A program made the position numbers and the translations under genes. Shown here piece by piece: positions 997 to 54,134 of a stretch of DNA of 64,000 nucleotides. Positions within the stretch are counted from its first letter, which is position 1; each line of letters starts with the position of its first letter. Origin of the DNA: an uncultured delta proteobacterium (lineage in GTDB: Bacteria > Myxococcota > Myxococcia > SLRQ01); assembly GCA_963727485.1 (NCBI GenBank), contig CAVSGM010000002.1, positions 198,854 to 262,853 on the forward strand, read 5' to 3'. Below the pieces are notes generated by a model. The model was not told the origin of the DNA. It made no database searches and saw only the letters and a program-made list of their open reading frames with translations.

Positions 997-3900
997 ATGC
1001 GATTGACCCGTAACTTTGCGCGTCTTGCCCTGGTGGCACTGGCGGCGGGGGCCTTTACGGCCGCCCAGGCCCAGACCACCGGAACGATCGTTGGTACGAT
1101 CCAGGACGCCAGCAACGGCAACCCCATTAGTGGCGCCCTCGTGGTCGCCCAGTCCCCGTCGCTGCAGGGCGAGCAGACCGCCCTGACCAGTGACGAGGGC
1201 ACGTTCCGCATCACCCTGCTGCCTCCTGGGCAGTACACGGTGATCGTCCAGGCCGACGGCTACCGCCCCGGCCAGCGAGGCAACATCACCGTTGACCTCG
1301 ACAAGACCATCCGGGTCACCATCCAGCTCGTGCCGAAGGCCCTCAAGGCCAAGGACGTGGTGGTCAAGGCGACCGCCCCGGTCATCGACCAGGGTTCCAC
1401 CTCCTCCGGCGCGGTGGTCAACGCCGACACCTTCGCGAAGAACGTCCCCACGGGCCGTTCCTTCCAGTCGGTGCTCAACGTGGCCCCCTCCGCCAGCTCC
1501 GACGGGCTGGGCACCACCTTCCGTGGGTCGTCCTCCCCCGAGAACAACTGGATCATCGACGGGGTCACCACCACCGACGTCGCCTACGGCAACGGCGGCA
1601 CCTCGCTGCCGAGCTTCTTCGTGAAGCAGGTCGAGGTGAAGACCGGTGGCTACCAGGCCGAGTACGGTCGCGCGACCGGCGGCGTGGTCAACGTCGTGAC
1701 CCGCTCCGGCGGCAACGCCTTCCACGGCGACGCCTTCGTTCGGTTCTCGTCGGGGGCCCTGAACCTCCCGAGCGCGAACATCCAGACCGGGTCGTCGCCG
1801 ATCAAGCCGACCGCCCAGCAGAGCCTGAACGTCGACTTCGGCTTCGACCTCGGCGGCTACATCATCAAGGACAAGCTCTGGTTCTTCGTGGGCGTGGTGC
1901 CCCAGATGGTCACCGACACCTACACCCGGTACGTGGAGCCGAAGACCACTGACGCCAGTGGCAACGACTTCACCTCGGGCCTGTGGCAGCCGACCTTCAA
2001 GAGCCCCATCGACAGCCTGACCAAGACCTACAACTGGAGCGGCACCACCATCGGCCGCATGGCCAAGCTGACCTGGAACGTCAACGAGAACAACTCGGCC
2101 CAGCTCTCCTACTTCGGGAACCCGGGGACGGACAGCGGCGTCATCAACTCGAGCCTCAACGGCACCGTGGCGGCCCTGTCCGCCAAGGAGGCCGGTGGCA
2201 ACCAGGACCTTAGCGTCCGGTGGACGAGCAAGCTCCTCAACAAGAAGATGCTCGCCGAGGTGTGGTACGGCCTGCACTACGAGACCAGCTCCACGCTGCC
2301 GGACACCAGCCTCCTGCAGTCGGGTGAGGGCTCGAGCGTGGCCACCAACGTCAGCGGTCCCATCGCCACCCAGTACCAGTACGACTACCTCCCGCCCGAG
2401 TTCGCCAACACCCCGGGCTGCGAGCCGACCACCGCCGGTGACAACACCACCTCCCCGTGCGCCAGCCGCTACTACATGGAGGGTCCGTGGTGGTACCAGT
2501 CGGACAACACCATGACCCGTAACGCGGTCGACCTGAAGTTCACCAACTTCGTGAACGCCGCCGGTCACCACGAGATCAAGTACGGTGGCGACTACCAGGT
2601 CAACCGGTTCCTCAACAAGTACGGCTACTACAACAAGTACGCCCAGCGGATCTACAACGGGTATACCCGGACCCAGGCCCTCGGTGACCTGAACGCCGCT
2701 GGCGACTTCGTGCCCAAGGACTTCCGCCGTCCGAACGGCCACACCTACGACACCAGCCTCTTCCTCCAGGACAACTACTCTCCTGTGGACGGGCTCTCGG
2801 TGAACCTCGGCCTCCGTTGGGCCACCCAGCAGGTGTGGGGCACCGGCCAGAAGAAGGCCTCCATCGCCATCAACGACAACCTGTCGCCGCGCGTTGGCGT
2901 GACCTACGACTGGACGGGGACCGGGCGCTCGAAGGTGTCGGCCTACTACGGCCGCTTCTACGAGGCCATCCCGATGGACATCAACTCCCGCGCCTTCGGT
3001 GGCGAGGTCTTCGGCCTCCAGTGGTGGCTGCCTGACGGCACCAACATCACCAACGGCATCTGCTCGCCGGGCAGCTGTGACGCCAGCGGCAACTACTACG
3101 CCCTCGGCGGGTCGGGCACCTACGTGGCCCCGGGCCTCAAGGGCCAGTACATCGACGAGTACAGCGCCGGCGTGCAGTACGAGATCCTCCCGGACCTCGC
3201 CGTGGGCGCCAACCTGGTCCACCGCAACCTCGGCCGCATCATCGAGGACGTCTCGCCTGACAACGGGAACACCTACATCCTCGCCAACCCCGGCGATCAG
3301 GGTGCCCTCGACGCCGGCGTCGCCGACCTCACCAAGCAGCTCCAGGCGGCCGGTGGCACCATGGGCAGCGACGGGACCCCCGACTGCTCGGCGGCCAGCA
3401 ACGCGGCCAGCTGCAACGACATCGCCAACAACCTGGTGCTGGTCCGCGGCGTCAAGGCCTTCCCGGCCCCGACCCGCAACTACGACGCCATCGAGCTGAG
3501 CGTGAAGAAGAACTTCTCGCGCAACTGGTACATGGTGGCGTCCCTGACCTTCTCCAAGACCTACGGCAACTACCCTGGTCTGTTCACCCCGGAGAACGGT
3601 CAGCTCGACCCGAACGTCACCTCCCAGTACGACCTCATCAGCCTCCTGTACAACCGGACCGGGCCTCTGCGCTCCGACCACCCGGTGTACTTCAAGCTCG
3701 ACGGGTACTACCTGTGGAACTTCGGTCTGGTCACCGGCCTCTCGCTCCGCGGGCGCTCCGGCACCCCGATCGACGCCCTCGGTGCCCACCCGGTGTACGG
3801 GCCGAACGAGGCCTTCGTCCTCCCCCGTGGCTCCGGCGGCCGTACCCCTCCGGTCTACGACGTGGACGTGAACGTGGGCTACACGCTGAAGGTGACCGGT

Positions 3901-4167
3901 GACGTGAAGGTGGCGCTCAACGCCAACATCTTCAACCTGTTCAACTTCCAGCAGCTCGTCGGCGTGAGCAGCACCTACACCGACAACAGCGTGATGCCGG
4001 TCGTCGGCGGTTCGCTCTCCGACATCCAGGATTCCAGCGGGAACCCGACCCTCCTGGACGTCAACGGCGACCTCATCACCAAGAGCCCGACCTGGCGCAA
4101 GCCGACGTCGAGCGGCAGTGTGCAGTCGCCGCTCGGGGCCCGGATCGACCTCCGCGTCTCCTTCTAG
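997..4167 (+). CDS. Oar-like TonB-dependent outer-membrane receptor with N-terminal carboxypeptidase-regulatory-like domain
   Basis: ORF 922..4167; internal start MRLTRNFARLALVALAAGAFTAAQAQ (signal peptide) preceded by GGAGG; N-terminal GTIVGTIQD...GTFRI...GQYTV domain; about 1057 aa; terminal residue Phe typical of beta-barrel OMPs. Confidence 0.85.
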   Translation: MRLTRNFARLALVALAAGAFTAAQAQTTGTIVGTIQDASNGNPISGALVVAQSPSLQGEQTALTSDEGTFRITLLPPGQYTVIVQADGYRPGQRGNITVDLDKTIRVTIQLVPKALKAKDVVVKATAPVIDQGSTSSGAVVNADTFAKNVPTGRSFQSVLNVAPSASSDGLGTTFRGSSSPENNWIIDGVTTTDVAYGNGGTSLPSFFVKQVEVKTGGYQAEYGRATGGVVNVVTRSGGNAFHGDAFVRFSSGALNLPSANIQTGSSPIKPTAQQSLNVDFGFDLGGYIIKDKLWFFVGVVPQMVTDTYTRYVEPKTTDASGNDFTSGLWQPTFKSPIDSLTKTYNWSGTTIGRMAKLTWNVNENNSAQLSYFGNPGTDSGVINSSLNGTVAALSAKEAGGNQDLSVRWTSKLLNKKMLAEVWYGLHYETSSTLPDTSLLQSGEGSSVATNVSGPIATQYQYDYLPPEFANTPGCEPTTAGDNTTSPCASRYYMEGPWWYQSDNTMTRNAVDLKFTNFVNAAGHHEIKYGGDYQVNRFLNKYGYYNKYAQRIYNGYTRTQALGDLNAAGDFVPKDFRRPNGHTYDTSLFLQDNYSPVDGLSVNLGLRWATQQVWGTGQKKASIAINDNLSPRVGVTYDWTGTGRSKVSAYYGRFYEAIPMDINSRAFGGEVFGLQWWLPDGTNITNGICSPGSCDASGNYYALGGSGTYVAPGLKGQYIDEYSAGVQYEILPDLAVGANLVHRNLGRIIEDVSPDNGNTYILANPGDQGALDAGVADLTKQLQAAGGTMGSDGTPDCSAASNAASCNDIANNLVLVRGVKAFPAPTRNYDAIELSVKKNFSRNWYMVASLTFSKTYGNYPGLFTPENGQLDPNVTSQYDLISLLYNRTGPLRSDHPVYFKLDGYYLWNFGLVTGLSLRGRSGTPIDALGAHPVYGPNEAFVLPRGSGGRTPPVYDVDVNVGYTLKVTGDVKVALNANIFNLFNFQQLVGVSSTYTDNSVMPVVGGSLSDIQDSSGNPTLLDVNGDLITKSPTWRKPTSSGSVQSPLGARIDLRVSF

Positions 4168-4269
4168 GTAGACGCGGGTCGAGAAGACCCGAGCTGTAGA
4201 TGAGGGCGGCGGACCTTGATGGTCCCGCCGCCCTCGTCGTATGTATCGCCCGCGGATCGGAAATCCACC

Positions 4270-7555
<3,286 letters not shown>

Positions 7556-39890: not shown

Positions 39891-39965
39891 GCGCGCGTAA
39901 CTCAGCGGTAGAGTGCCACCTTCACACGGTGGAAGTCGCTGGTTCGAACCCAGCCGCGCGTACCA
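39891..39965 (+). tRNA. tRNA-Val (anticodon CAC)
   Basis: GCGCGCGTAACTCAGCGGTAGAGTGCCACCTTCACACGGTGGAAGTCGCTGGTTCGAACCCAGCCGCGCGTACCA: 7-bp acceptor stem, D-stem ACTC/GAGT, anticodon stem CCACC/GGTGG with loop TTCACAC, T-arm GCTGG-TTCGAAC-CCAGC, encoded CCA. Confidence 0.9.
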
Positions 39966-40029: not shown

Positions 40030-41568
40030 ATGGCTGCTTCCGAGCGCAGGCCCCGGGCCCTGGTCGTCGACGACGACGACGGGATGCGTGGGAACATGGC
40101 CCACATCCTCGAGGCCGACGGCTTCGAGACGGTGGGCGCGGTCGACGGGATGGACGCCCTGGGGCGGCTCGAGCGCGCCAGCTTCGACATCGCCCTCCTC
40201 GACATCCAGATGCCGGGCATCGACGGCCTGGAGACGCTGAAGCGGATCCGGGAGAAGGCGCCGGAGGTCGAGGTGGTGATGGTCACGGTGCTCAAGGAGA
40301 TCCCCAAGGTCGTCGAGGCGATGAAGCTCGGGGCCTTCGACTTCCTCACCAAGGACTTCCGGGCCAGCGAGCTGCAGCTCAAGGCCCAGCAGGCCCTGAC
40401 CCACAGGCGCACCGCCCGGCAGATGGCCTACCTCCGCGACGAGGTGGAGCGACAGGCCCCCGGCGAGATGATCATGGGCGACGGGCCGGCGATGCGCGAG
40501 GTGTCGACCCTGGTCGACAAGGTGGCGCCGCTCCCCGCCACGGTGCTGGTCCTCGGCGAGAGCGGGACGGGCAAGGAGCTGCTGGCCAGGCGTCTCCACC
40601 GCATCTGGTCCGGGGGCGACAAGAAGAAGCCCTTCGTCACGGTGAACCTGGCGGCGATGCCCGCCAGCCTCATCGAGTCCCAGCTCTTCGGGCACGAGAA
40701 GGGGGCGTTCACCGGGGCCACCGAGCAGCGCCTGGGGAAGTTCGAGCTCGCCGACGGAGGCACGCTCTTCCTCGACGAGATTGGCGAGCTGCGCCTCGAT
40801 CTCCAGGCGAAGCTCCTGCGCGCCATCCAGGAGCGCGAGGTGGAGCGCCTCGGGGGCAAGCGTCCGGTGCCGGTGGATGTCCGGCTCATCACCGCCACCA
40901 ACGTCGACCTCAAGGAGGCGGTCCACGCCGGTCGCTTCCGTGAAGACCTCTACTACCGCATCAACGTCATCCCCATCCGGCTGCCGCCCCTGCGCGAGCG
41001 CATCGAGGACGTGCCGGTGCTGGCGCGGCACTTCGCCCGGAAGGCGGGGCAGCGGTTCAACCGGCCAGTGCCCGAGCTCACCGACACGGCGCTCGAGGTG
41101 CTGATGCGCTACCCCTGGCCCGGGAACGTCCGGGAGCTGGAGAACCGCATCGCCGGGCTGGTGGCGGTGCAGGACCGGCCGGTCATCGACGACGTGGACC
41201 TGCCCATCGAGTTCAGCTACCCGCGCTTCTACGACGAGGCCCGGCGCAAGAAGGCGGACGGGCTGGCGGTGGCGCTCACGGCCTTCGAGCGGTCGTTCAT
41301 CGCCATGACCCTGGAGAAGACGGGGTGGCACCGGAAGCAGGCGGCGGCGGAGCTGGGCATCGGCTACTCGACGCTGAAGAAGAAGCTCAAGAAGCTGGGT
41401 GCTCGCGCCGCCCGGGGGGCGCCACGCCGACGGGGACCCGGACGGCGACGACGACGAGGGGTGAGCCCTCACCGGCGCCGGAGGGACGTGGCGCGCGTGG
41501 CCGGCGTCGTCAGGCGGCGTCGGGGGACGACTCGGCCACCGGGGGACTGGCGCGCCGGGGCAGGGTGA
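40030..41568 (+). CDS. NtrC-family sigma-54-dependent response regulator (receiver, AAA+, HTH) with Arg-rich C-terminal extension
   Basis: MAASERRPRALVVDDDDG...DIALLDIQMPGIDG (receiver) ...GESGTGKELLA...GAFTGA...ELADGGTLFLDEIGEL...AAELGIGYSTLKKKLKKLG (HTH); the last about 55 aa are low-complexity and overlap the convergent kinase gene, so the true stop may be earlier. Confidence 0.85.
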   Translation: MAASERRPRALVVDDDDGMRGNMAHILEADGFETVGAVDGMDALGRLERASFDIALLDIQMPGIDGLETLKRIREKAPEVEVVMVTVLKEIPKVVEAMKLGAFDFLTKDFRASELQLKAQQALTHRRTARQMAYLRDEVERQAPGEMIMGDGPAMREVSTLVDKVAPLPATVLVLGESGTGKELLARRLHRIWSGGDKKKPFVTVNLAAMPASLIESQLFGHEKGAFTGATEQRLGKFELADGGTLFLDEIGELRLDLQAKLLRAIQEREVERLGGKRPVPVDVRLITATNVDLKEAVHAGRFREDLYYRINVIPIRLPPLRERIEDVPVLARHFARKAGQRFNRPVPELTDTALEVLMRYPWPGNVRELENRIAGLVAVQDRPVIDDVDLPIEFSYPRFYDEARRKKADGLAVALTAFERSFIAMTLEKTGWHRKQAAAELGIGYSTLKKKLKKLGARAARGAPRRRGPGRRRRRGVSPHRRRRDVARVAGVVRRRRGTTRPPGDWRAGAG

Positions 41569-43288
41569 CCACGAAGACGGCGCCGCCGCTGGGGCGGTTC
41601 CCGGCGGAGACGGTGCCCCCCTGCTCCTCGACGATGCGACGGACCACGGCGAGGCCGAGGCCGAGGCCGTTGCCCGAGCCCTTGGTGGTGCGGAAGGCGT
41701 CGAAGAGGTCGTGGAGGAGCGCCGGGGGGATGCCCGGGCCGTCGTCCTCGACCACCACGGTGACCCGGCTCGCCTCGAGGCCGACGCGGAGGGTGACGTG
41801 TCCCCCGTGGTCGCGGAGGGCGTCGAGGGCGTTCTCCACGAGGTTGCGCACGGCGCGCTCGAGGGCCAGGGCGTCGACCTCGACCATGGGGTCCCCGTCG
41901 CCCTCGACGACCAGGGCGAGGGAGATGCCGCGGGTGCGGGCGGTGGCGGTGAGGCTGCCCTCGAGGCGACGGAGGAGGTCGGGGAGGAGCACCGGCGCGG
42001 CCTCGGCCTCCCGGGGGTTGGCGAACTCCGAGAGGTCGGCGAAGAGCCGGTCGATGTAGGCCTGCTCCCGGTCGAGGTTCGCCTCGAGGTCTTGGCGGGT
42101 GGCCTCGGTCTCGGGGATGTCGAGGAAGGTCCGGACGTGGGTGATGAGGTGCTGGAACGGGCGCTTGAGATCGTGGGCCAGCCCGCCGGCGATGCGGCCG
42201 AAGAACGCCAGGCGCTCCTGGCGGCGAATCTCCTGGGTGAGGGTGCCGAGGTCCTCGGCCATGTGGTTGAAGCCCCGGGCCAGGTCGCCGAGCTCGTCGG
42301 GGCGGTCGTGGTGGACGCGGACGGTGAAGTCGCCCTCGCCGATGCGCCGGGCGCCGGCGGCGAGGCGCTCCACGGGGTTGACGATGGTCCGGGCGCCGAT
42401 GAAGGTCACGGTGCCCACGGCGAGGAGCGCCGCGAAGAGCACGATGAGCAGGCCGAGGCCGAGCGCCCGCGCCTGGGCGAAGGCGTCCCGCGCAGGTGTC
42501 TCCACCACGGCGACCCAGTCGGTGCCCGGGACGGAGGCGGCGGCGCCGACCACCTGCAGCCCGTCGCGGCGGTCATAGGTCGCCGACACGGCGCCGCCGT
42601 CCTTCTCCACCTCGTTCACGATCTTCGGGGTGGGGTAGGGGCGGCGCTGGATGGCGTAGACGAGCTCCTTGGCGATGCCGTGGGCGAAGAGGTGCCCGTG
42701 GCGGTCGACGAGGTAGGTGTAGCCGGTGCGACCGAGGCGCAGGTCGCGGACCATGGACCACAGCTCCAGGGTGTCGACCTCGGCGGCGAGCGCCCCCACG
42801 GTCCGCCCGAGGCGGTGGACCGGCACGGCCACGGCCATCACCGGCAGCAGGTCGTCGCCGATGACCACCTGGGTCACCTGGGGCTTGCCGGTGGCCAGGG
42901 TCTTGTCCGCGGCGCCGCGCACCAGCTTGGAGGGCCCCTTGTCCGGCAGCAAGGTGCTGAAGGTCCGTTTGCCCCCGTGGTCGAAGTCGACCAGGTAGCG
43001 CAGGGTGCGGTCCTCGAGGAGCGCCCGCGCCAGCACCCGGTCGGTCTCGGTGGCGTCGAGCCCGTTGCCCGGGCTCACCGCCGCCCCCACCGCCCGCACC
43101 ACGTCCACGCGCCCGCGGACGAAGGCCCCGACCCGCTTGGCCACCTCCGACGCCGCCGCCCGGGTCCCGGCGGTCACGCCCTCCTGCGCCCCGCGGATTC
43201 CGGACCAGGTGGCGTAGACCCCGTAGGCGCCGAGGGGAAAGAGCGTGGTGAGCGCCAGGAAGAGCAGGAGCTTGGCGCGCAGGCGCAT
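41510..43288 (-). CDS. Sensor histidine kinase (two TM segments, periplasmic sensor domain, HAMP, HisKA, HATPase)
   Basis: MRLRAKLLLFLALTTLFPLGAYGVY (TM1), about 270-aa extracytoplasmic region, LGLGLLIVLFAALLAVGTVTFIGA (TM2), ...FFGRIAGGLAHDLKRPFQ (H-box)...ENALDA...GNGLGLGLAVVRRIVE... Confidence 0.85.
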   Translation of the reverse strand: MRLRAKLLLFLALTTLFPLGAYGVYATWSGIRGAQEGVTAGTRAAASEVAKRVGAFVRGRVDVVRAVGAAVSPGNGLDATETDRVLARALLEDRTLRYLVDFDHGGKRTFSTLLPDKGPSKLVRGAADKTLATGKPQVTQVVIGDDLLPVMAVAVPVHRLGRTVGALAAEVDTLELWSMVRDLRLGRTGYTYLVDRHGHLFAHGIAKELVYAIQRRPYPTPKIVNEVEKDGGAVSATYDRRDGLQVVGAAASVPGTDWVAVVETPARDAFAQARALGLGLLIVLFAALLAVGTVTFIGARTIVNPVERLAAGARRIGEGDFTVRVHHDRPDELGDLARGFNHMAEDLGTLTQEIRRQERLAFFGRIAGGLAHDLKRPFQHLITHVRTFLDIPETEATRQDLEANLDREQAYIDRLFADLSEFANPREAEAAPVLLPDLLRRLEGSLTATARTRGISLALVVEGDGDPMVEVDALALERAVRNLVENALDALRDHGGHVTLRVGLEASRVTVVVEDDGPGIPPALLHDLFDAFRTTKGSGNGLGLGLAVVRRIVEEQGGTVSAGNRPSGGAVFVVTLPRRASPPVAESSPDAA

Positions 43289-44616
43289 CTAGTGGGCCTT
43301 GGCCGGGCGGATGGAGAGGGCCAGCGAGTAGGGCTCGGTCGAGTCGGGCTTGGGATGGACGAAGCGGAAGCGCTTGGAGGTGACGGCGACGCGGGGGAGC
43401 ACGCCCAGCGGCACGAAGGGCGGGTTCTCCGCGAGGCGCTTGCGGATGTCCTTCCAGGTCGCGCCCTTGGCGAGCATGGCGTCGAGGACCGGGTCGTGGT
43501 GGTGGCCGACGTTCAGGCGGGCGCTCGATGGCGACATACAACGTTGGGGCCCGAGCGGGTGGCGCAAGTTGATGAAGCTAGGCGGAGGTCGAGCTTCCAT
43601 GGGCTGGCCAAGTCGCTGCTTGGGCCACATGCTGTCACATGAGCCTGGACTCCTGCATCCGCTAGGCTCACGAAGAGGTCTTCGGTCGCCATGCGCGATC
43701 TCCTCGAGGTTGACGATCTCGAGGTCTAGCGGCTTGGTGATGGTCTTCAGCATCCTCTTGCACCCAGCGCGGAGGGGCGTGTCAGAACCGACTTGCCGAT
43801 GGACCCGTGCGGGCGTCGGGGCCAGCCCATAGGCGACCTGCCAACGCCCGGAAGGCAGGAGTGATGGCTCTGGCAATGCACCGCCGGACCGCCGTGACTT
43901 TGGAGTAGGGGCTCATCTTCGTTGAAGACGAGCACAGCCTCGGTGTTCCTCTGCAGTACGGAGTCACCAGTCCTACCCGAGGCAGCGAGCAGGCGATCGT
44001 GCTGTAGGGGGAGCCCGCCGGCCACGTCGGCGTCGCCGGCTAGCAGGTGGGCGAAGACGGCCACGCGGCCCCGAGACGTGTCGGACGACCATCAGCCGAG
44101 GGTCGTGCATGGGCTGCACGGCGCGCGAGACAGATCCGGCTGGGCGCTCTGGGAGCGACCCGGTACGGGCCTGCGCCAATCCACGCCCCGTCCCGACCTC
44201 TTCGGGCAACGGGTGCCCACGGGACCGCGTGCATGTCCGGTGTCGGCAGGTGCAGGATACAGCCTGCCGTTGCGCTGCCAGTGCCAGCTCTCGCTCTGGG
44301 ACCCCAGATGCAGCTCACGGCGGATCGCGCTGACGAGGTCGCGCGGCCGGATCGGGGAGCCGTCCTGGAAGTACCAGGTCGGCTTGAGGTTCGACCGCAC
44401 AAGGATTCTCGCTGGGGCAGTGCAGGGCAGCCGGATAAGACGTGATCCGAGTGGAGGCGCAATTAGGTCGAGCAGGGTGGCCGAGTCGCCGTTGTGGGGC
44501 ATGCCGGGAACGAGCGGCTCGAGAGGGCGGGGTGAGACCCACACGAGCGGTCGCTCCTGGCGCTGGCGGGCGTGGCCTGACACAGGCCGACAGGAGAAGC
44601 CCAAGCGCAAGCGCAA
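43289..44616 (-). other. Gene remnant/degraded region: intact-looking C-terminal about 80 codons (43289-43540) followed upstream by about 1.1 kb of lower-GC sequence with stops in all frames
   Basis: Reverse strand ...HHHDPVLDAMLAKGATWKDIRKRLAENPPFVPLGVLPRVAVTSKRFRFVHPKPDSTEPYSLALSIRPAKAH* is protein-like with high-GC codon use; upstream only short discontinuous ORFs (e.g. ...TWYFQDGSPIRPRDLVSAIRRELHLGSQSESWHWQRNG...); local GC about 58-62%. Confidence 0.35.
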
Positions 44617-44735
44617 GCGGTACAGTCCTTCGGTGCCTCACCGAGACAGCCTAGTCGTAGTCGCGCAGTCCGACGGAAGACAAAGGCCCCCGTCGCTGAC
44701 GAGGGCCTCTCGAATCTCAGAACGGTGACCGCGGG

Positions 44736-44804
44736 TTAGAAGCCGGCGAGGGCGTCGCAGGGGATGCGCTTCCGATTCCGCTTGTTGAGGGGCTTCTTGA
44801 CCAT
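44736..44804 (-). CDS. 22-codon cationic small ORF (MVKKPLNKRNRKRIPCDALAGF) immediately downstream of the radical SAM gene; candidate peptide
   Basis: ATG preceded by AAGGAAGG at about 7 nt; 69 nt to TAA; single Cys; about 120 nt after the radical SAM stop on the same strand. No homology could be checked. Confidence 0.3.
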   Translation of the reverse strand: MVKKPLNKRNRKRIPCDALAGF

Positions 44805-44925: not shown

Positions 44926-46254
44926 CTAGGCCGCCACTTCCTCCGAGGGCATCCGGCCCTCGTAGAACTCGTCGAGGTAGCGCCGCTTCAGGGTCTCGCG
45001 GCCCACCGTGTCGAAGTAGTCGTGCTCACAGCTCACGCCGAGGGTGCCGTTGCGGCGGTAGGTCGTCGCCCGGCAACCGCCGGCGCACACGGGCAGGTAC
45101 TCGCACTGGCCGCAGTCCTTCACCGGGTCGAGGCTCTCGAGGAGCTCGACGCGGGGCAGCCAGCGGTCGTCGGTGATCCGGCCGACGGCCATCTTCGGAT
45201 CGCCCACCAGGACGTCGCACTTGTAGAGGTAGCCGCCGGCGTCGACGAGCAGGTACTGGTCCATGTGGAGGCCACAGGGGCCGAGGCCGAACTCGGGCTC
45301 GGGGCTGAGGCCCGAGCTCACCGCCTTCATCTGGAGGTGGACCAGGCCGTCGGGGTCGGCGTCGGAGATGCGGGTGGCGCAGTCGCCGTCGCCGCGTCCG
45401 TCGAGGACCGGCTTGAACTTCAGCTCGCTGATGGCGTCGGCGAGCCCCTCGCGGCGCAGCACGTCGGCGAGCTCGCCGTACGCGTGCTCGAGGCCCGCGG
45501 GCACGTTGCTGCCGATGTGGATGCGCACCCGCCCGGCGACCGCCTTGAGGTTCGCGAGGATCTGGTCCCAGGAGCCCGTCCCGTCCTTGCGAACCCGGCT
45601 CTGGTCGTGGTGGTGCTTGGGCCCGTCGAGGGTGACCTTGACCGACTCGAGCCCCAAGGGCGCCATGGCGTCGACGAAGGGCCGGTCGAGGAGGGCGCCG
45701 TTGGTGATGATCCGGCAGCTGAAGGCGCGACCGTCCTCGGCGAGCTCGCGCTGGAAACGCTCGGCGGTGCGGAGGATGAGGGGCTTCTTGAGGAGCGGCT
45801 CGCCGCCGAAGTAGGTGAGCTCCAGGGTGTGGAGGTCGTAGCGGGCCATCCGGCGCCGGACCCAGCCGTGGAGCGCCTGCTCCACCGTCTTGCCCATCCC
45901 CGGCCCGCTGGGGCCACCCTCGGCCTCGTAGCAGTAGGGGCACCCGAAGTTGCAGTTCTCGGTGACCAGCACCCGCAGGCGCAGCACTCCGTCGCCCTGC
46001 TTCATCCCCAGCATGAAGTCGCGGAGGGCGGCGTCGTCGGCGACCTCGTCCTCGACGAGGAAGCCCTCGGCCGAAAGGTAGTCGACCTCCTCCTGCTCGA
46101 GGGCGCTCGCCGGCGGCCCGCCCGACAGGGACCCGACCCAGCCGAGGGCCCGGTCGTCGAGGCCGACCAGGTTGTCGGTCAGGGTGTTGTAGAGGACGTG
46201 CTCCCCGGGGAGTGGGAAGTCTCGGATGAGGACGTGGAACCGGGTGAGCTGCAT
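44926..46254 (-). CDS. Radical SAM/SPASM-domain protein (peptide-maturase-like), 442 aa
   Basis: MQLTRFHVLIRDFPLPGEHVLYNTLTD... about 95-aa N-terminal domain, then VTENCNFGCPYCYE (CxxxCxxC), GGEPLL; C-terminal auxiliary-cluster motifs C-x18-C and CGQCEYLPVCAGGC (Cx2Cx5Cx3C) plus terminal VSC; GGGAG RBS. Confidence 0.85.
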   Translation of the reverse strand: MQLTRFHVLIRDFPLPGEHVLYNTLTDNLVGLDDRALGWVGSLSGGPPASALEQEEVDYLSAEGFLVEDEVADDAALRDFMLGMKQGDGVLRLRVLVTENCNFGCPYCYEAEGGPSGPGMGKTVEQALHGWVRRRMARYDLHTLELTYFGGEPLLKKPLILRTAERFQRELAEDGRAFSCRIITNGALLDRPFVDAMAPLGLESVKVTLDGPKHHHDQSRVRKDGTGSWDQILANLKAVAGRVRIHIGSNVPAGLEHAYGELADVLRREGLADAISELKFKPVLDGRGDGDCATRISDADPDGLVHLQMKAVSSGLSPEPEFGLGPCGLHMDQYLLVDAGGYLYKCDVLVGDPKMAVGRITDDRWLPRVELLESLDPVKDCGQCEYLPVCAGGCRATTYRRNGTLGVSCEHDYFDTVGRETLKRRYLDEFYEGRMPSEEVAA

Positions 46255-46299
46255 GGGGTGTCTCCCTGAATCGCCCCCCGAGAGAGCAGGGAGCGTGCC

Positions 46300-46660
46300 A
46301 CCCGCCAGGGGGCTCCAAATCGAGCCCTCCCGACTCGGCTCAGCGGTCCAAGCTGGAAATCTCAATTGATTTCAACCACCTGTCACCAAGGCTCAAAATA
46401 GAGCCCCACGTGGCTACCCTCGCCCGAAGCGACACAAGCCACCGGAATCACTGTGAATCGCCTGGACCAGGCCCCGAATGGGGCTTATCCCGACCCCAGG
46501 GGACTCTTCCAAAAAACACCTGTGATCACAAGGCGTTGGAAAGAGGGTGGCGACCCCGCCGGGGCACGTCGCCCAGCTTCGGGAAAGGGCTCCATTTGGA
46601 GCCCTTTCGTCCCGGGGCGGGGCCAGATCACGGGGAAATACCAATAAAAACCGTGATTTG
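46300..46660. promoter_or_regulatory. AT-richer intergenic control region with multiple palindromes between the radical SAM gene and the divergent small-protein/kinase operon
   Basis: GGGCTC-caaatc-GAGCCC (about 46310-46327), GGCTC-aaaata-GAGCC (about 46390-46405), GAAAGGGCTCCA-tt-TGGAGCCCTTTC (about 46583-46608), TGTGATCACA (about 46521-46530), TCAATTGA, ATCACGG-N18-CCGTGAT; codon usage in short ORFs here is atypical. Confidence 0.3.
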
Positions 46661-46741
46661 GGCGCAGCCGCTCCTAGGCGAGCCCTCAGGTCTCACCCTA
46701 GAGCCAGTGGTGGCACGCCGCTGGCAAAAGAGACCAGTGCA

Positions 46742-46990
46742 ATGTCCAGGCTCGCCAAGGTCAAGGTCGTCGAGCTCGACGGGAAAAAGGTGTTCCTCCA
46801 CTTCTACGAGGACGTCTCGACCCTCGGGACGCCCCGCTACTCGGTGGAGATCCGCTTCGGCCCCGAGGACCGCGTCGTCTTCGACGGCCCCAGCATCTCG
46901 GACCTCGAGGCGACCACCCAGGCCTGCCTCCCTGCCACCTGGGCCAGCCGGCGGATGCTCGCCGGCGCGGCCTACGGCGCCCCCCACTGA
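46742..46990 (+). CDS. Small protein (82 aa, hypothetical) translationally coupled to the downstream histidine kinase
   Basis: MSRLAKVKVVELDGKKVFLHFYEDVSTLGTPRYSVEIRFGPEDRVVFDGPSISDLEATTQACLPATWASRRMLAGAAYGAPH; stop overlaps the kinase ATG (TGATG). Confidence 0.5.
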   Translation: MSRLAKVKVVELDGKKVFLHFYEDVSTLGTPRYSVEIRFGPEDRVVFDGPSISDLEATTQACLPATWASRRMLAGAAYGAPH

Positions 46991-47865
46991 TGCAACCCCT
47001 CGCCTCCCAGCCGACGCCCTCGCGTCCCTACCGCGCCGATCCCATGCCCCGCGACCCCGAGCTTCACGCCGCCCGCCTCGTCGAGCTGGGCAGCCTGGTA
47101 CCGGGGCTGGTGCACGAGCTCTCGAACCCGGCCGCGGTCCTCCGGGGCAACCTCGGCGCCGTCGTCGACCACGCCGACACCCTGGGCCGACTGGTCAACG
47201 GCCTCGACCAGGGGCAGGACGCCTCGGCCCTGCGCCGGGACCTCGAGCTCGATGACACCGCCATCGACCTCGCCGAGCTGGTGGGCGAGTCCGCCGGCGC
47301 CCTCGACGAGCTGGTCTCCCTCCTCGGCGACATCCGTCACTACGCCGCCGGCGCCGAGGCCGAGGCCGAGGCCGATCTCGCCTCGGCCGTCGCCGCCGCC
47401 CTGCGCCTCGCCACCTACGAGACCAAGTACCGGGCCGCCGTGAGCGTCGGCGTCGGCGACCTCCCTCGGATCGCCCTGTGCCCCGTCCACCTGGTGCAGC
47501 TGGTGCTGGCCCTCATCCTCAACGCCGCCCAGGCCCTCGCCGACCACCGGCAGCTCCACGGCGACCTGGGCCACGTGTCCCTCTCGGCCAGGGCCGAGGG
47601 CGACGACCTCGTCGTCCTCGAGGTCCGCGACGACGGCCCCGGCGTGTCCCCCGACCTCGCCGACCGCGTCTTCGAGCCCGGGGTCACCTCGCGGCCCGGG
47701 GCCAGGGGCATGGGCCTGTACCACGCCCGGAACCTCCTCGAGCGCGCCGGTGGCGCCCTCGTCCTCCAACCGCCCCGTGGCGGGGGCGCCGTCTTCGTCG
47801 CGCGCCTGCCCGCCCTCTCCGACGACATTCACAGTGAGGCCATCGGTCCTGTCCACAAGACATAG
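46990..47865 (+). CDS. Soluble histidine kinase core (HisKA plus HATPase, no TM or recognisable sensor domain)
   Basis: ...ARLVELGSLVPGLVHELSNPAAVLRGNLG (H-box near N-terminus)...ILNAAQAL...LEVRDDGPGVSPDLADRVFEPGVTSRPGARGMGLYHARNLLERAGGAL. Confidence 0.75.
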   Translation: MQPLASQPTPSRPYRADPMPRDPELHAARLVELGSLVPGLVHELSNPAAVLRGNLGAVVDHADTLGRLVNGLDQGQDASALRRDLELDDTAIDLAELVGESAGALDELVSLLGDIRHYAAGAEAEAEADLASAVAAALRLATYETKYRAAVSVGVGDLPRIALCPVHLVQLVLALILNAAQALADHRQLHGDLGHVSLSARAEGDDLVVLEVRDDGPGVSPDLADRVFEPGVTSRPGARGMGLYHARNLLERAGGALVLQPPRGGGAVFVARLPALSDDIHSEAIGPVHKT

Positions 47866-47989
47866 GGTCTTGTGACCATGCCCCCCCGCAGAGGTCGATG
47901 GCCGGGAACCCCGCCGTGAATACGGCGGGGTTCTCTTTTTCCGTCCCCCGCGCCCGTCGGACGAGGGGAGCGCAAGGCGCGGCCTGCGC

Positions 47990-48379
47990 CTACGCCTCGG
48001 GCGTCTCGGTCTCCCGCTTGCGCAGCATGTACTTCACCTTGCGCATCAGCCCGTCGAGGTCGAAGGGTTTCTCGATGAAGTCCTCGGCCCCGAGCTCCAG
48101 GCCGAGCTGGCGGCTGAAGGGGTCGCCCCGGGCCGAGAGGAAGAGGACCGGGATCGCCCGGGTCTGGTCGTCGGCCTTCAGCGCCCGGCACACGTCCCGG
48201 CCGTCCATCCGCGGCATGTTCACGTCGAGGACCACCAGGTCGGGTTGGTCGCTCTGGGCGAGGGCGAGGCCCTCGACGCCATCGGCCGCGGTGATCACCG
48301 TGAAGCCGTGGCGCTCGGCGGTGCGACGGAAGATCGTGCGCAGCTCGGCGTCGTCGTCGACGAAGAGGAGGCGAGCCAT
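47990..48379 (-). CDS. Single-domain (CheY-like) response regulator
   Basis: MARLLFVDDDAELRTIFRRTAERHGFTVITAADGVEGLALAQSDQPDLVVLDVNMPRMDGRDVCRALK...IPVLFLSARGD...; 129 aa; convergent with the kinase core. Confidence 0.8.
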   Translation of the reverse strand: MARLLFVDDDAELRTIFRRTAERHGFTVITAADGVEGLALAQSDQPDLVVLDVNMPRMDGRDVCRALKADDQTRAIPVLFLSARGDPFSRQLGLELGAEDFIEKPFDLDGLMRKVKYMLRKRETETPEA

Positions 48380-52480: not shown

Positions 52481-54047
52481 TCAGCGTGCGGCCTGGCGCG
52501 GCTCCTCGAGGCCGTACTTCTCACACTTCGCGATGAGGTTCGAGCGGCTCACGCCCAGCTCGCGCGCGAGGCGCGACTTGTTCCAGTGGGTGCGGATGAG
52601 CCCCTGGTGGATCATCTCCCGCTCCAGGGCCTCGACGGCGTGCTTGAGCTTGCCGGTGGTCTTGATGGGGCTGACCCCCTTGGGCGTCCCCACCGCGTCG
52701 CGGATCCGGGGGCTGACCAGGTCGACCCCGAGCTCGCCGTCGTCGGCGCCGAGGACCAGGAGCCGCTCGAATCTCGTTCTCGAGCTCGCGGATGTTCCCG
52801 GGCCAGTCGTAGGTGCCCAGCAGCTCGAGGCACTCGCGCGCGAGGGTCCGGGCGTCGCCGTTGCCGTGCTTGCGCAGGAAGTGCTCCACCAGCAGGGGGA
52901 TGTCGTCGCGGCGCTCGCGCAGGGCCGGGACGTCGATCTTGATGACGTTGATCCGGTAGTAGAGGTCCTCGCGGAACTCGCCGGCCTCGACCATCTTGGC
53001 CAGGTCCTTGTGGGTGGCGGCGATGACCCGGACGTCGACCTCCCTGGCGGAGGTCCCGCCCACCGGCGTGAAGGTGCCCTCCTGGAGCACCCGGAGGAGC
53101 TTGACCTGGAGGGTGGGGGACATGTCCCCGACCTCGTCGAGGAAGAAGGTCCCGCCGTCGGCGACCTCGAAGAGGCCCTTCTTGTCCTTGATGGCGCCGG
53201 TGAACGCGCCCTTCACGTGACCGAAGAGGGCGCTCTCCAGGAGGTTGTCGTTGAACGCCGAGCAGTTCTGGACCACGAACGCCTTGTCCTTGCGCGGCCC
53301 GTTGTAGTGGATGGCCCGGGCGACCAGCTCCTTGCCGGTGCCGCTCTCCCCGTGGACCAGGACCGTGGAGTCGGAGTTGCACACCTTCTCCAGGACCCGG
53401 TAGACGTCCTGCATCGCCTGGCTGGAGCCGATGATGGACTCGAAGCGGTAGCGCTCGGAGAGCTCGTCGGAGAGGTGCTGGATCTCCCGGTCGCGCTTGC
53501 CCATCTCCAGCTCGAAGGCGGCAATCTCGTCGGCGCCGAACTCGAGGAGGTCGCAGAGCTTCTCCACGCCCTCCGGGGGGATCACCGGGAGCCGCTGGAC
53601 GGCCCGGTCGAGGTCGGTGGCCCCGGGGTTGAGCACCCGGATCCGCGAGCTGGCCTGCTCGACCTGCCGCTCGGTGAGATCCTCCCGGAGGAAGCCACCG
53701 ACGAACATGAAGCCCTTGTACTCGGAGGCCACCACGATGGGGCAGCCGACGATGGTGAACCCCAGGTGGCAGTCGTGGAAGAGGCAGCGCCTGGGCTTCT
53801 TGCTGGCGCGGAACTTGTCGCCGACGAACTTCACCGACTCGTTGCAGCGCCGAAAGCCCTCCTTGGAGAAGAGCGAGAGGCGGCAGAAGTCGTTGTTCGG
53901 GGGGATGATCTGGCCGTTGGCGTGCTCGAGGACGTAGCCGGTCTTGTCGGCGAAGGCGAGCTCGAGGCCCCACCACTTGCGGATCACGTCCCGCAGCATG
54001 ATGATGGTGTGCAGGTTCTGGTAGCGCTCGTACTCCTGCAACGCCAT
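52481..54047 (-). CDS. Sigma-54-dependent transcriptional activator, paralogue of the 20327-21898 gene (same N-terminal Cys/His domain), frame change near 52765-52775
   Basis: MALQEYERYQNLHTIIMLRDVIRKWWGLELAFADKTGYVLEHANGQIIPPNNDFCRLSL...KEGFRRCNESV...; AAA+ core GESGTGKELVA...GAFTGA...GTFFLDEVGDM; HTH tail ...HWNKSRLARELGVSRSNLIAKCEKYG in ORF 52481..52693 frame; [11 protein letters not shown]. Confidence 0.8.
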
Positions 54048-54134
54048 GCTCTTTCTCCTCCCGGGACGGCCAGCGGTAAGGCGCCCCTTGGTGACTTGAC
54101 CTGACCGGCGACACCCCACCGCCGGCTGCACAGA

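Follow-up and report, generated by a model that had tools for sequence, protein, structure and literature searches.

What supplies the input to a histidine kinase that carries no sensor of its own is the question raised by a short block of genes (positions 46742 to 48379) in a 64,000-nucleotide stretch of DNA from an uncultured delta proteobacterium, the whole of which is called the window hereafter and has a G+C content of 72%. In this block a small gene of 82 codons, p82 (46742-46990, plus strand; translation MSRLAKVKVV...GAPH*), runs directly into the gene for a bare kinase of 291 residues (46990-47865, plus strand), which is followed by a convergent gene for a CheY-like stand-alone receiver (47990-48379, minus strand), and the adjacent divergent operon encodes a radical S-adenosylmethionine (SAM) peptide maturase. 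As judged from sequence conservation and gene order, p82 belongs to an uncharacterised family of cytoplasmic proteins of about 80 residues, a constant companion of a peptide-signalling cluster. The members of this family may act as regulatory or binding subunits for signalling enzymes without their own sensor, a tentative reading to which we give a little less than an even chance.

The small gene overlaps the kinase gene by one base, shared by its TGA stop codon (46988-46990) and the ATG of the kinase (TGATG), and the junction string CACTGATG is invariant in the four aligned loci, namely the window, L001, L002 and L003, with L002 identical to L001 across the stretch aligned. In the frame plot, the G+C content at third codon positions (GC3) amounts to 0.83-1.00 in the p82 frame and 0.87-1.00 in the kinase frame, with the switch from one frame to the other at about 46960-47020. 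Two homologues, P0001 (88% identity) and P0002 (77%), each also of 82 residues, are encoded on contigs L001/L002 and L003, and the ratio of nonsynonymous to synonymous substitution rates (dN/dS) for p82 against L001 and L003 is 0.16-0.26 for the whole gene and 0.10-0.18 for codons 1-74. A more diverged homologue, P0003 (49% identity), is found in L009, where the small gene has a 4-nucleotide overlap with its downstream gene. Sequences identical to p82 and the kinase of the window were not found in an exact-sequence look-up. Conservation and purifying selection mark the 82-residue open reading frame (ORF) as a real gene, and both the overlap and the coding status that the initial annotation had ascribed to it are upheld by the invariant junction, the GC3 profile, the dN/dS values and a family of 2,210 clusters described below. 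The kinase has a second in-frame ATG (Met18, 47041), which is the start called in L001; since frame and length are kept over the 18 codons between both ATGs when the window is compared with L001, the start at the overlap (46990) is likely to be the one used rather than Met18.

A profile built from three p82 sequences and searched against 1.84 billion representatives gave 35 matches at E<=1e-3, nearly all of 70-120 residues, and a profile of 25 sequences searched against a collection of 5.8 billion sequences gave 2,210 clusters. Among the matches listed, those with a name are all designated "hypothetical protein", and Pfam domains are absent throughout; both source organisms that are named are metagenome-assembled genomes of Vicinamibacterales (Acidobacteriota), and the family is abundant in soil metagenomes. 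Scanning of genome collections with a three-sequence p82 alignment gave no match, and a four-sequence alignment retrieved only L010, apparently the same sequence as L009. No family match was obtained in Pfam (25 members scanned), NCBIfam or a PDB profile search, and these three sources likewise gave no match of p82 to PmrD, SipA, Sda, KipI, H-NOX or NosP. Residues R32, E36, D43, D48, L55, E56, S69 and R70 are invariant or near-invariant in the family. Three entries, P0022, P0025 and P0027, look chimeric, with MurG-, MerR-type- and radical SAM-like fragments joined to the family at the RRYSAE motif, and are probably assembly or gene-calling artefacts.

Structure prediction, which the initial annotation had proposed for p82, yields a folded protein: the AlphaFold2 model built from 56 sequences has a predicted local distance difference test score (pLDDT) of 88.6 and comprises four antiparallel strands (residues 3-12, 15-25, 31-40 and 43-49) and one long helix (52-79), with type III secretion chaperones included among its nearest folds. 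A PqqD-like recognition element was rejected, as neither sequence nor fold matches, and so was a PilZ-like domain, suggested by RxxxR...DxSxx in canonical members, as the window clade lacks these motifs and no Pfam match exists. That p82 is itself the substrate of the maturase, either as a second, larger precursor or as the carrier of a protein-derived cofactor, would account for a small protein lying beside a SPASM enzyme and for the Cys62 and the motif ACLPATWASR conserved in the window clade. However, Cys62 is missing from most family members, whose consensus in this region is L.PAT.YSR, p82 is predicted to be a folded domain, and in each lineage examined a conserved short single-Cys peptide is encoded directly after the maturase, so that we consider such a role very improbable. 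The same two observations, the folded domain and the separate short ORF, led to the rejection of p82 as a precursor of a ribosomally synthesized and post-translationally modified peptide.

The coupled kinase consists of a dimerization and histidine phosphotransfer (DHp) domain and a catalytic and ATP-binding domain only, with the H-box GLVHELSNP and the phospho-acceptor His42 at 47113-47115. Its sole Pfam domain is HATPase_c (PF02518; residues 166-275, 47485-47814; 59.5 bits, cutoff 26.4), and N178, D214xG216xG218, F228 and G240xG242L, which correspond to the N, G1, F and G2 boxes, are invariant in the kinase alignment. Pfam HisKA was not found at E<=0.01, and the DHp region aligns solely within full-length NCBIfam matches over residues 26-279, the best of them to T2SS_HK, EspA, ZraS and AtoS, with all scores far under the cutoffs. 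Neither a membrane segment nor a sensor domain was found in the 291 residues by Pfam or hydropathy; the lone hydrophobic peak (Kyte-Doolittle 2.13), as read from the sequence, is the N-box helix inside the ATPase domain. The kinase therefore is what the initial annotation had taken it for, an enzyme with an N-terminal H-box and without transmembrane segment or sensor. Its H-box aligns with GLAHDLKRP of a second kinase of the window, a full-length dCache_1-HAMP-HATPase_c sensor kinase (41510-43288, minus strand; Pfam), and with GLVHDLSHP of the L007 kinase, and, compared with the dCache kinase, its DHp domain is extended by an insertion of roughly 15-25 residues. The bare kinase is only 31% identical to the dCache kinase core and differs from it at residues H+7 to H+12, findings that speak against both a recent duplication and a regulator common to the two kinases; a recent origin of the bare kinase from the dCache kinase core was rejected on these grounds, and the H+7 to H+12 differences are consistent with a regulator partner other than that of the dCache kinase.

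A candidate for such a partner is the convergent receiver of 129 residues, which has a Response_reg domain (PF00072, 97.7 bits, residues 5-115) and no output domain, and in which D8-D10, D52, S82 and K104 are present as read from the translation. Between the convergent kinase and receiver genes a terminator scan located a hairpin with a 14-pair stem followed by TTTTT (47904-47935, plus strand), and an Rfam scan of 43.2-48.6 kb gave a sole match, which is sub-threshold and situated at this terminator. The L001 contig holds a partial receiver copy, 94% identical over the 35 residues present, and no receiver copy was found in L009/L010. Hence, the receiver is present where the kinase keeps its phospho-acceptor histidine (the window and, as a partial copy, L001) and absent where this residue is lost (L009). 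The initial annotation correctly placed a stand-alone receiver on the opposite strand, but it is not the only response regulator nearby, as an NtrC-type regulator is encoded at 40030-41568.

The enzyme coupled to the small gene is not constant among relatives. In L001 an orthologous bare kinase, 61% identical, is joined to it by TGATG, and in L003 the same TGATG joins the small gene to a sensor-less HD-GYP protein (HDVGK...HHERLDGS). The L009/L010 locus encodes a kinase-like protein (L009 2234-3043) with a 4-nucleotide overlap, in which Gly replaces the phospho-acceptor His and the N, G1, F and G2 boxes are kept; a tetratricopeptide repeat gene follows directly and there is no convergent receiver. 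A 4-nucleotide overlap with the downstream gene recurs at the P0008 locus, and in L091 (35% G+C) the small gene, here p85, is separated by an 87-nucleotide gap from a gene for a REC-HD-GYP protein, i.e. a receiver domain joined to HD-GYP. For most of the family, the gene ahead of the small one is simply that of a full-length dCache-HAMP sensor kinase. Relative to L001, the kinase has a dN/dS of 0.58, the maturase one of 0.37 and p82 one of 0.16, and the varied partners together with the stronger constraint on p82 than on the kinase suggest that the small protein is the conserved element and that the signalling enzyme behind it is replaceable. The notion of a p82-kinase pair hence needs to be revised: the overlap recurs in diverged relatives and the small gene co-occurs with signalling genes across genomes, but the kinase is not its fixed partner, the enzyme behind it differing between loci (HD-GYP in L003, REC-HD-GYP in L091 and a His-less protein in L009).

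Nor is this arrangement an isolated kinase pair, as it had first appeared; instead, a six-part cluster of wide distribution has been rearranged in this particular lineage. The canonical order, all on one strand, is an NtrC-type regulator, a radical SAM/SPASM enzyme, one to three tiny ORFs, an SBP_bac_5 protein, a dCache_1-HAMP-HATPase_c kinase and the gene of 80 codons, as observed in L004, in L006/L007/L008 and in a JGI contig. In 80 metagenome loci, which amount to roughly one lineage, the dCache kinase lies 16-143 nucleotides ahead of the small gene in each locus with upstream sequence, and the whole canonical order is found in each that is long enough to show it. The diverged locus L093 (42% G+C) retains the canonical order, with a NarL-type regulator after its small gene p83 and a sigma-54 motif TGGCAT-N5-TTGC just before it, and in L094 the small gene begins 38 nucleotides after a kinase C-terminus. 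The contig end of L094 (about 640-723) resembles an Illumina adapter (AGATCGGAAGAGCACACG...), i.e. untrimmed reads in a public assembly. The tiny ORFs encode candidate precursor peptides of the cluster, of 21-31 residues with a single Cys, belonging to a family of the form MKIKVVKKAxNxKPxGFCxxFVD[DE]PPMNKK (16 loci) with the counterpart MKLKVVKKGVKKISRALWCSWWVRH in L093, and these short peptides match no NCBIfam model. Two repeats were noted in L004: about six tandem copies of a unit of about 41 nucleotides upstream of the maturase (2200-2450), and a tandem duplication of the 3' end of the maturase together with the precursor gene (3900-4600), giving two precursors that are one residue apart. 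No description of the system was found in the searched literature.

All parts of the canonical cluster are present in the window at 40.0-46.3 kb, and comparison of gene orders indicates that in this lineage the cluster is rearranged such that only the small gene has moved, to the divergent side of the maturase. The NtrC-type regulator (40030-41568, plus strand; REC - sigma54 AAA+ - HTH_8 by Pfam) is read from ATG 40030 because a tRNA-Val gene (anticodon cac; 39891-39965, plus strand) occupies the region directly upstream; long ORFs listed across this tRNA are artefacts. The regulator gene and the convergent dCache kinase gene have 59 nucleotides in common, at the C-terminal tail of the former and the 3' end of the latter, and the dCache kinase has the same architecture as the canonical kinase that precedes the 80-codon gene. 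Next to it lies a degraded SBP_bac_5-like lipoprotein gene (43291-44629, minus strand), to which the gene from L001, where it is intact, gave a tblastn match of 31.5% identity over 460 columns; it has stops in all three reverse-strand frames and, unlike its neighbours, no high-GC3 ORF, and is either a pseudogene or an assembly error. The maturase of 442 residues (44926-46254, minus strand), read from Met38 of a listed ORF of 479 codons, has orthologues of 442-443 residues in L001, L003 and L009, and carries a Pfam Radical_SAM match that starts at residue 133 of the 479-residue ORF, leaving roughly 95 residues ahead of the core, as well as a SPASM domain (TIGR04085, 48.9 bits, cutoff 27). The geopeptide maturase family TIGR04280, a SPASM enzyme with a short Cys peptide alongside, is the best-scoring family for both the window maturase (222 bits) and the canonical one (246 bits), but both remain under its cutoff of 400 bits; no mention of this family was found in the searched literature. 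Directly after the maturase follows an ORF of 22 codons, too short for the ORF listing, which encodes the candidate precursor peptide MVKKPLNKRNRKRIPCDALAGF (44736-44804, minus strand), with the ribosome-binding site GAAAGGAAGG upstream and a hairpin downstream. Its counterparts are MVKKPQNKKARKAFPCDTISF in L001, MIKKTTKTKQNTKRMPCQWMIS in L009 and the MKIKVVKK...C... peptides of the 16 further loci, and it is probably the real substrate of the maturase.

The region between p82 and the maturase gene carries the signals that appear to tie the two operons together. A motif scan of the whole 64 kb with the sigma-54 pattern TGGCAC-N5-TKGCW, allowing at most one mismatch, gave only two matches, a number not above chance (2.5 expected): TGGCACGCCGCTGGCA (46711-46726, plus strand), 16 nucleotides before the p82 ATG, and TGGCACGCTCCCTGCT (46285-46300, minus strand), about 30 nucleotides before the maturase ATG. 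The sigma-54 assignment is made because of the position of these motifs and their conservation in L001, L003 and L009, not because of their count. The core of the p82 motif is invariant in L001, L002 and L003 and takes the form TGGCATGAAAATGGCA in the L009 sequence, and at the maturase TGGCAC-N5-CTGCT is found at the same place in L001, L003 and L009; the two motifs are hence predicted divergent sigma-54 promoters. Three GGCTC-N6-GAGCC palindromes (46311-46326, 46390-46405 and 46588-46603), the only exact matches in the window, all sit between these two promoters as candidate activator sites, one of them abutting the -24 element of the maturase promoter. Exactly three palindromes are found in the same intergenic region of L001, L003 and L009 each; their spacing in L001 and L003 is that of the window, about 80 and 199 bp, and in L009 it is 80 and 76 bp. 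Canonical loci also have a sigma-54 motif before the maturase, but their palindromes are GGCCAA-N4-TTGGCC instead. The divergent motifs and shared palindromes bear out the proposed tie of the pair to the radical SAM module, and we infer that an enhancer-binding activator controls p82 and the kinase jointly with the maturase, the NtrC-type regulator of the cluster being the most economical candidate for this role. A second sigma-54 activator, without receiver domain (52521-54131, minus strand), has a syntenic orthologue in L009 (7483-9069, minus strand) with a PocR domain, the synteny including LexA and a hydrolase, and is an alternative candidate for binding the palindromes.

Could p82 itself act on this regulatory DNA, either as an anti-activator of NtrC or as a beta-sheet DNA binder at the palindromes, exerting feedback on both promoters? 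As an AP2/integrase-type beta-sheet DNA-binding domain p82 was rejected, the profile comparison being null (probability 0.13%); furthermore, the window protein is neutral in charge and the L091 protein acidic, L093 has a NarL-type regulator beside p83, and such a function would offer no reason why HD-GYP and kinase genes are repeatedly coupled to the small gene. A role in transcription hence appears quite improbable. Another possibility, compatible with p82 being a regulatory subunit, concerns the output of the bare kinase, which might mainly feed the NtrC-type regulator of the cluster in a positive feedback, the receiver being a phosphate sink or unrelated. The best family alignments of the kinase are to ZraS and AtoS, kinases that have NtrC-type regulators, the NtrC-type regulator is 5.4 kb away, and the kinase operon itself is predicted to be sigma-54 dependent. 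However, the residues after the phospho-acceptor His are unlike those of the dCache kinase, the presumed partner of that regulator, the receiver and the His co-occur, and all kinase family scores are far under the cutoffs, which leaves this feedback rather unlikely.

The most substantial competitor places p82 in the peptide pathway, as a chaperone of precursor or product or in export or self-protection, without any contact to the kinase, the overlap serving only co-expression and the kinase being constitutively active, with its input provided transcriptionally via the sigma-54 promoter. Such a role is favoured by the maturase being the most constant neighbour in the window clade, by the type III secretion chaperones among the nearest folds, which are holders of extended peptides, by the strand-like basic leader MKIKVVKK of the precursors, and by sigma-54 control, which already gives the kinase an input. 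On the other side, leader recognition could be served by the N-terminal roughly 95 residues of the maturase, which from general knowledge of SPASM maturases we take to be a possible recognition domain of its own, and p82 matches neither PqqD nor a recognition element. Also, the canonical small gene sits after the kinase, not beside maturase or precursor, and L091 pairs it with a REC-HD-GYP protein, and no maturase is seen on the sampled short contigs (2.6 and 1.5 kb). On balance a role confined to the peptide pathway is possible but unlikely.

If p82 is indeed a regulatory subunit, the following course of events can be envisaged. The NtrC-type regulator, upon phosphorylation by the dCache kinase, would bind the GGCTC-N6-GAGCC sites and fire both divergent sigma-54 promoters, of which one would drive the synthesis of maturase and precursor and the other that of p82 and the bare kinase. 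The stop/start overlap, by translational coupling, would fix the proportion of p82 to kinase. p82, with its predicted four-strand-plus-helix fold of a binder type, would dock on sensor-less enzymes and set their activity, a step suggested by gene neighbourhoods; its targets would be the bare kinase here, in relatives an HD-GYP protein or the kinase-like ATPase without the His, and in the canonical arrangement the dCache kinase at its cytoplasmic core. The bare kinase would in turn phosphorylate the CheY-like receiver, opening a second output branch of the peptide system, a step proposed because of the adjacency of the two genes and the joint absence of His and receiver in L009; in relatives with HD-GYP this second output would be cyclic-di-GMP hydrolysis. 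A more speculative and rather doubtful extension joins both functions by considering the family of about 80 residues as partner-switching adaptors, which would hold the strand-like basic leader of the unmodified precursor in the cytoplasm, as secretion chaperones hold their clients, and upon maturation or export of the peptide would be freed to bind the kinase core, an HD-GYP protein or the cytoplasmic part of the dCache kinase, its core, and thereby switch these enzymes. If true, peptide production would be linked directly to phosphorelay and cyclic-di-GMP output, which would represent a new signalling logic, used by a new class of radical-SAM-modified peptides abundant in soil Vicinamibacterales.

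Several observations weigh against the proposed regulatory subunit. The proposed contact between p82 and the kinase is suggested by gene neighbourhoods only, and if translation of the kinase starts at Met18, the p82-kinase overlap would be abolished. The predicted sigma-54 transcription start at about 46737 leaves p82 a leader of some 5 nucleotides without a Shine-Dalgarno sequence; in relatives the leaders are longer and have GGAGG-like sites. The pairing of His and receiver is a matter of two lineages versus one, and the degraded SBP_bac_5 gene means that the system may be partly decaying in this genome. As for sampling, none of the 80 metagenome loci is less than 76% identical to a single reference, and the 2,210 clusters are represented by only about eight independent contexts.

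Accessory proteins feeding sensor-less kinases are a known kind. H-NOX with its kinase and NosP with NahK are stand-alone sensors encoded beside the kinases that they regulate, and the partner can be a kinase or a cyclic-di-GMP enzyme. Like these, p82 is a separate small protein, encoded in the same operon as a signalling enzyme whose input it would provide; however, it is related to them neither in sequence nor in fold and is half their size, with no Pfam match and no cofactor-binding motif seen. PmrD, SipA acting on NblS, Sda and KipI, proteins of about 50-130 residues, bind a kinase or a regulator; in many cases one two-component system induces them, and they modulate a different one. p82 resembles them in lying behind a promoter probably controlled by the dCache/NtrC pair, but it matches none of them, belongs with a radical SAM peptide cluster and has a coupled partner that varies between kinase and HD-GYP. 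In peptide-pheromone operons such as agrBDCA and comCDE, precursor, kinase and regulator are encoded together, and the assembly of precursor, modifying enzyme, kinase and regulator in the cluster described here likewise suggests autoinduction. Here, in contrast, sensing would use the SBP_bac_5 protein, the dCache kinase and sigma-54, no exporter or protease was seen in the cluster, and the additional cytoplasmic protein of about 80 residues is without counterpart. What is new is hence the p82 family with its fold and its fixed link to a radical SAM peptide cluster, unmatched in Pfam, NCBIfam, PDB sequences and the searched literature.

If p82 acts as proposed, a function would be named for an unannotated family of more than 2,000 sequence clusters, and an undescribed six-part peptide-signalling cluster would be defined, composed of sigma-54 control, maturase, single-Cys peptide, binding protein, dCache kinase and small protein. 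Related genomes, in which one and the same small protein is coupled to a kinase in one case, to a His-less kinase in another and to an HD-GYP protein in a third, constitute a natural experiment, and the route by which sensor-less signalling enzymes receive their input would thus become directly testable.

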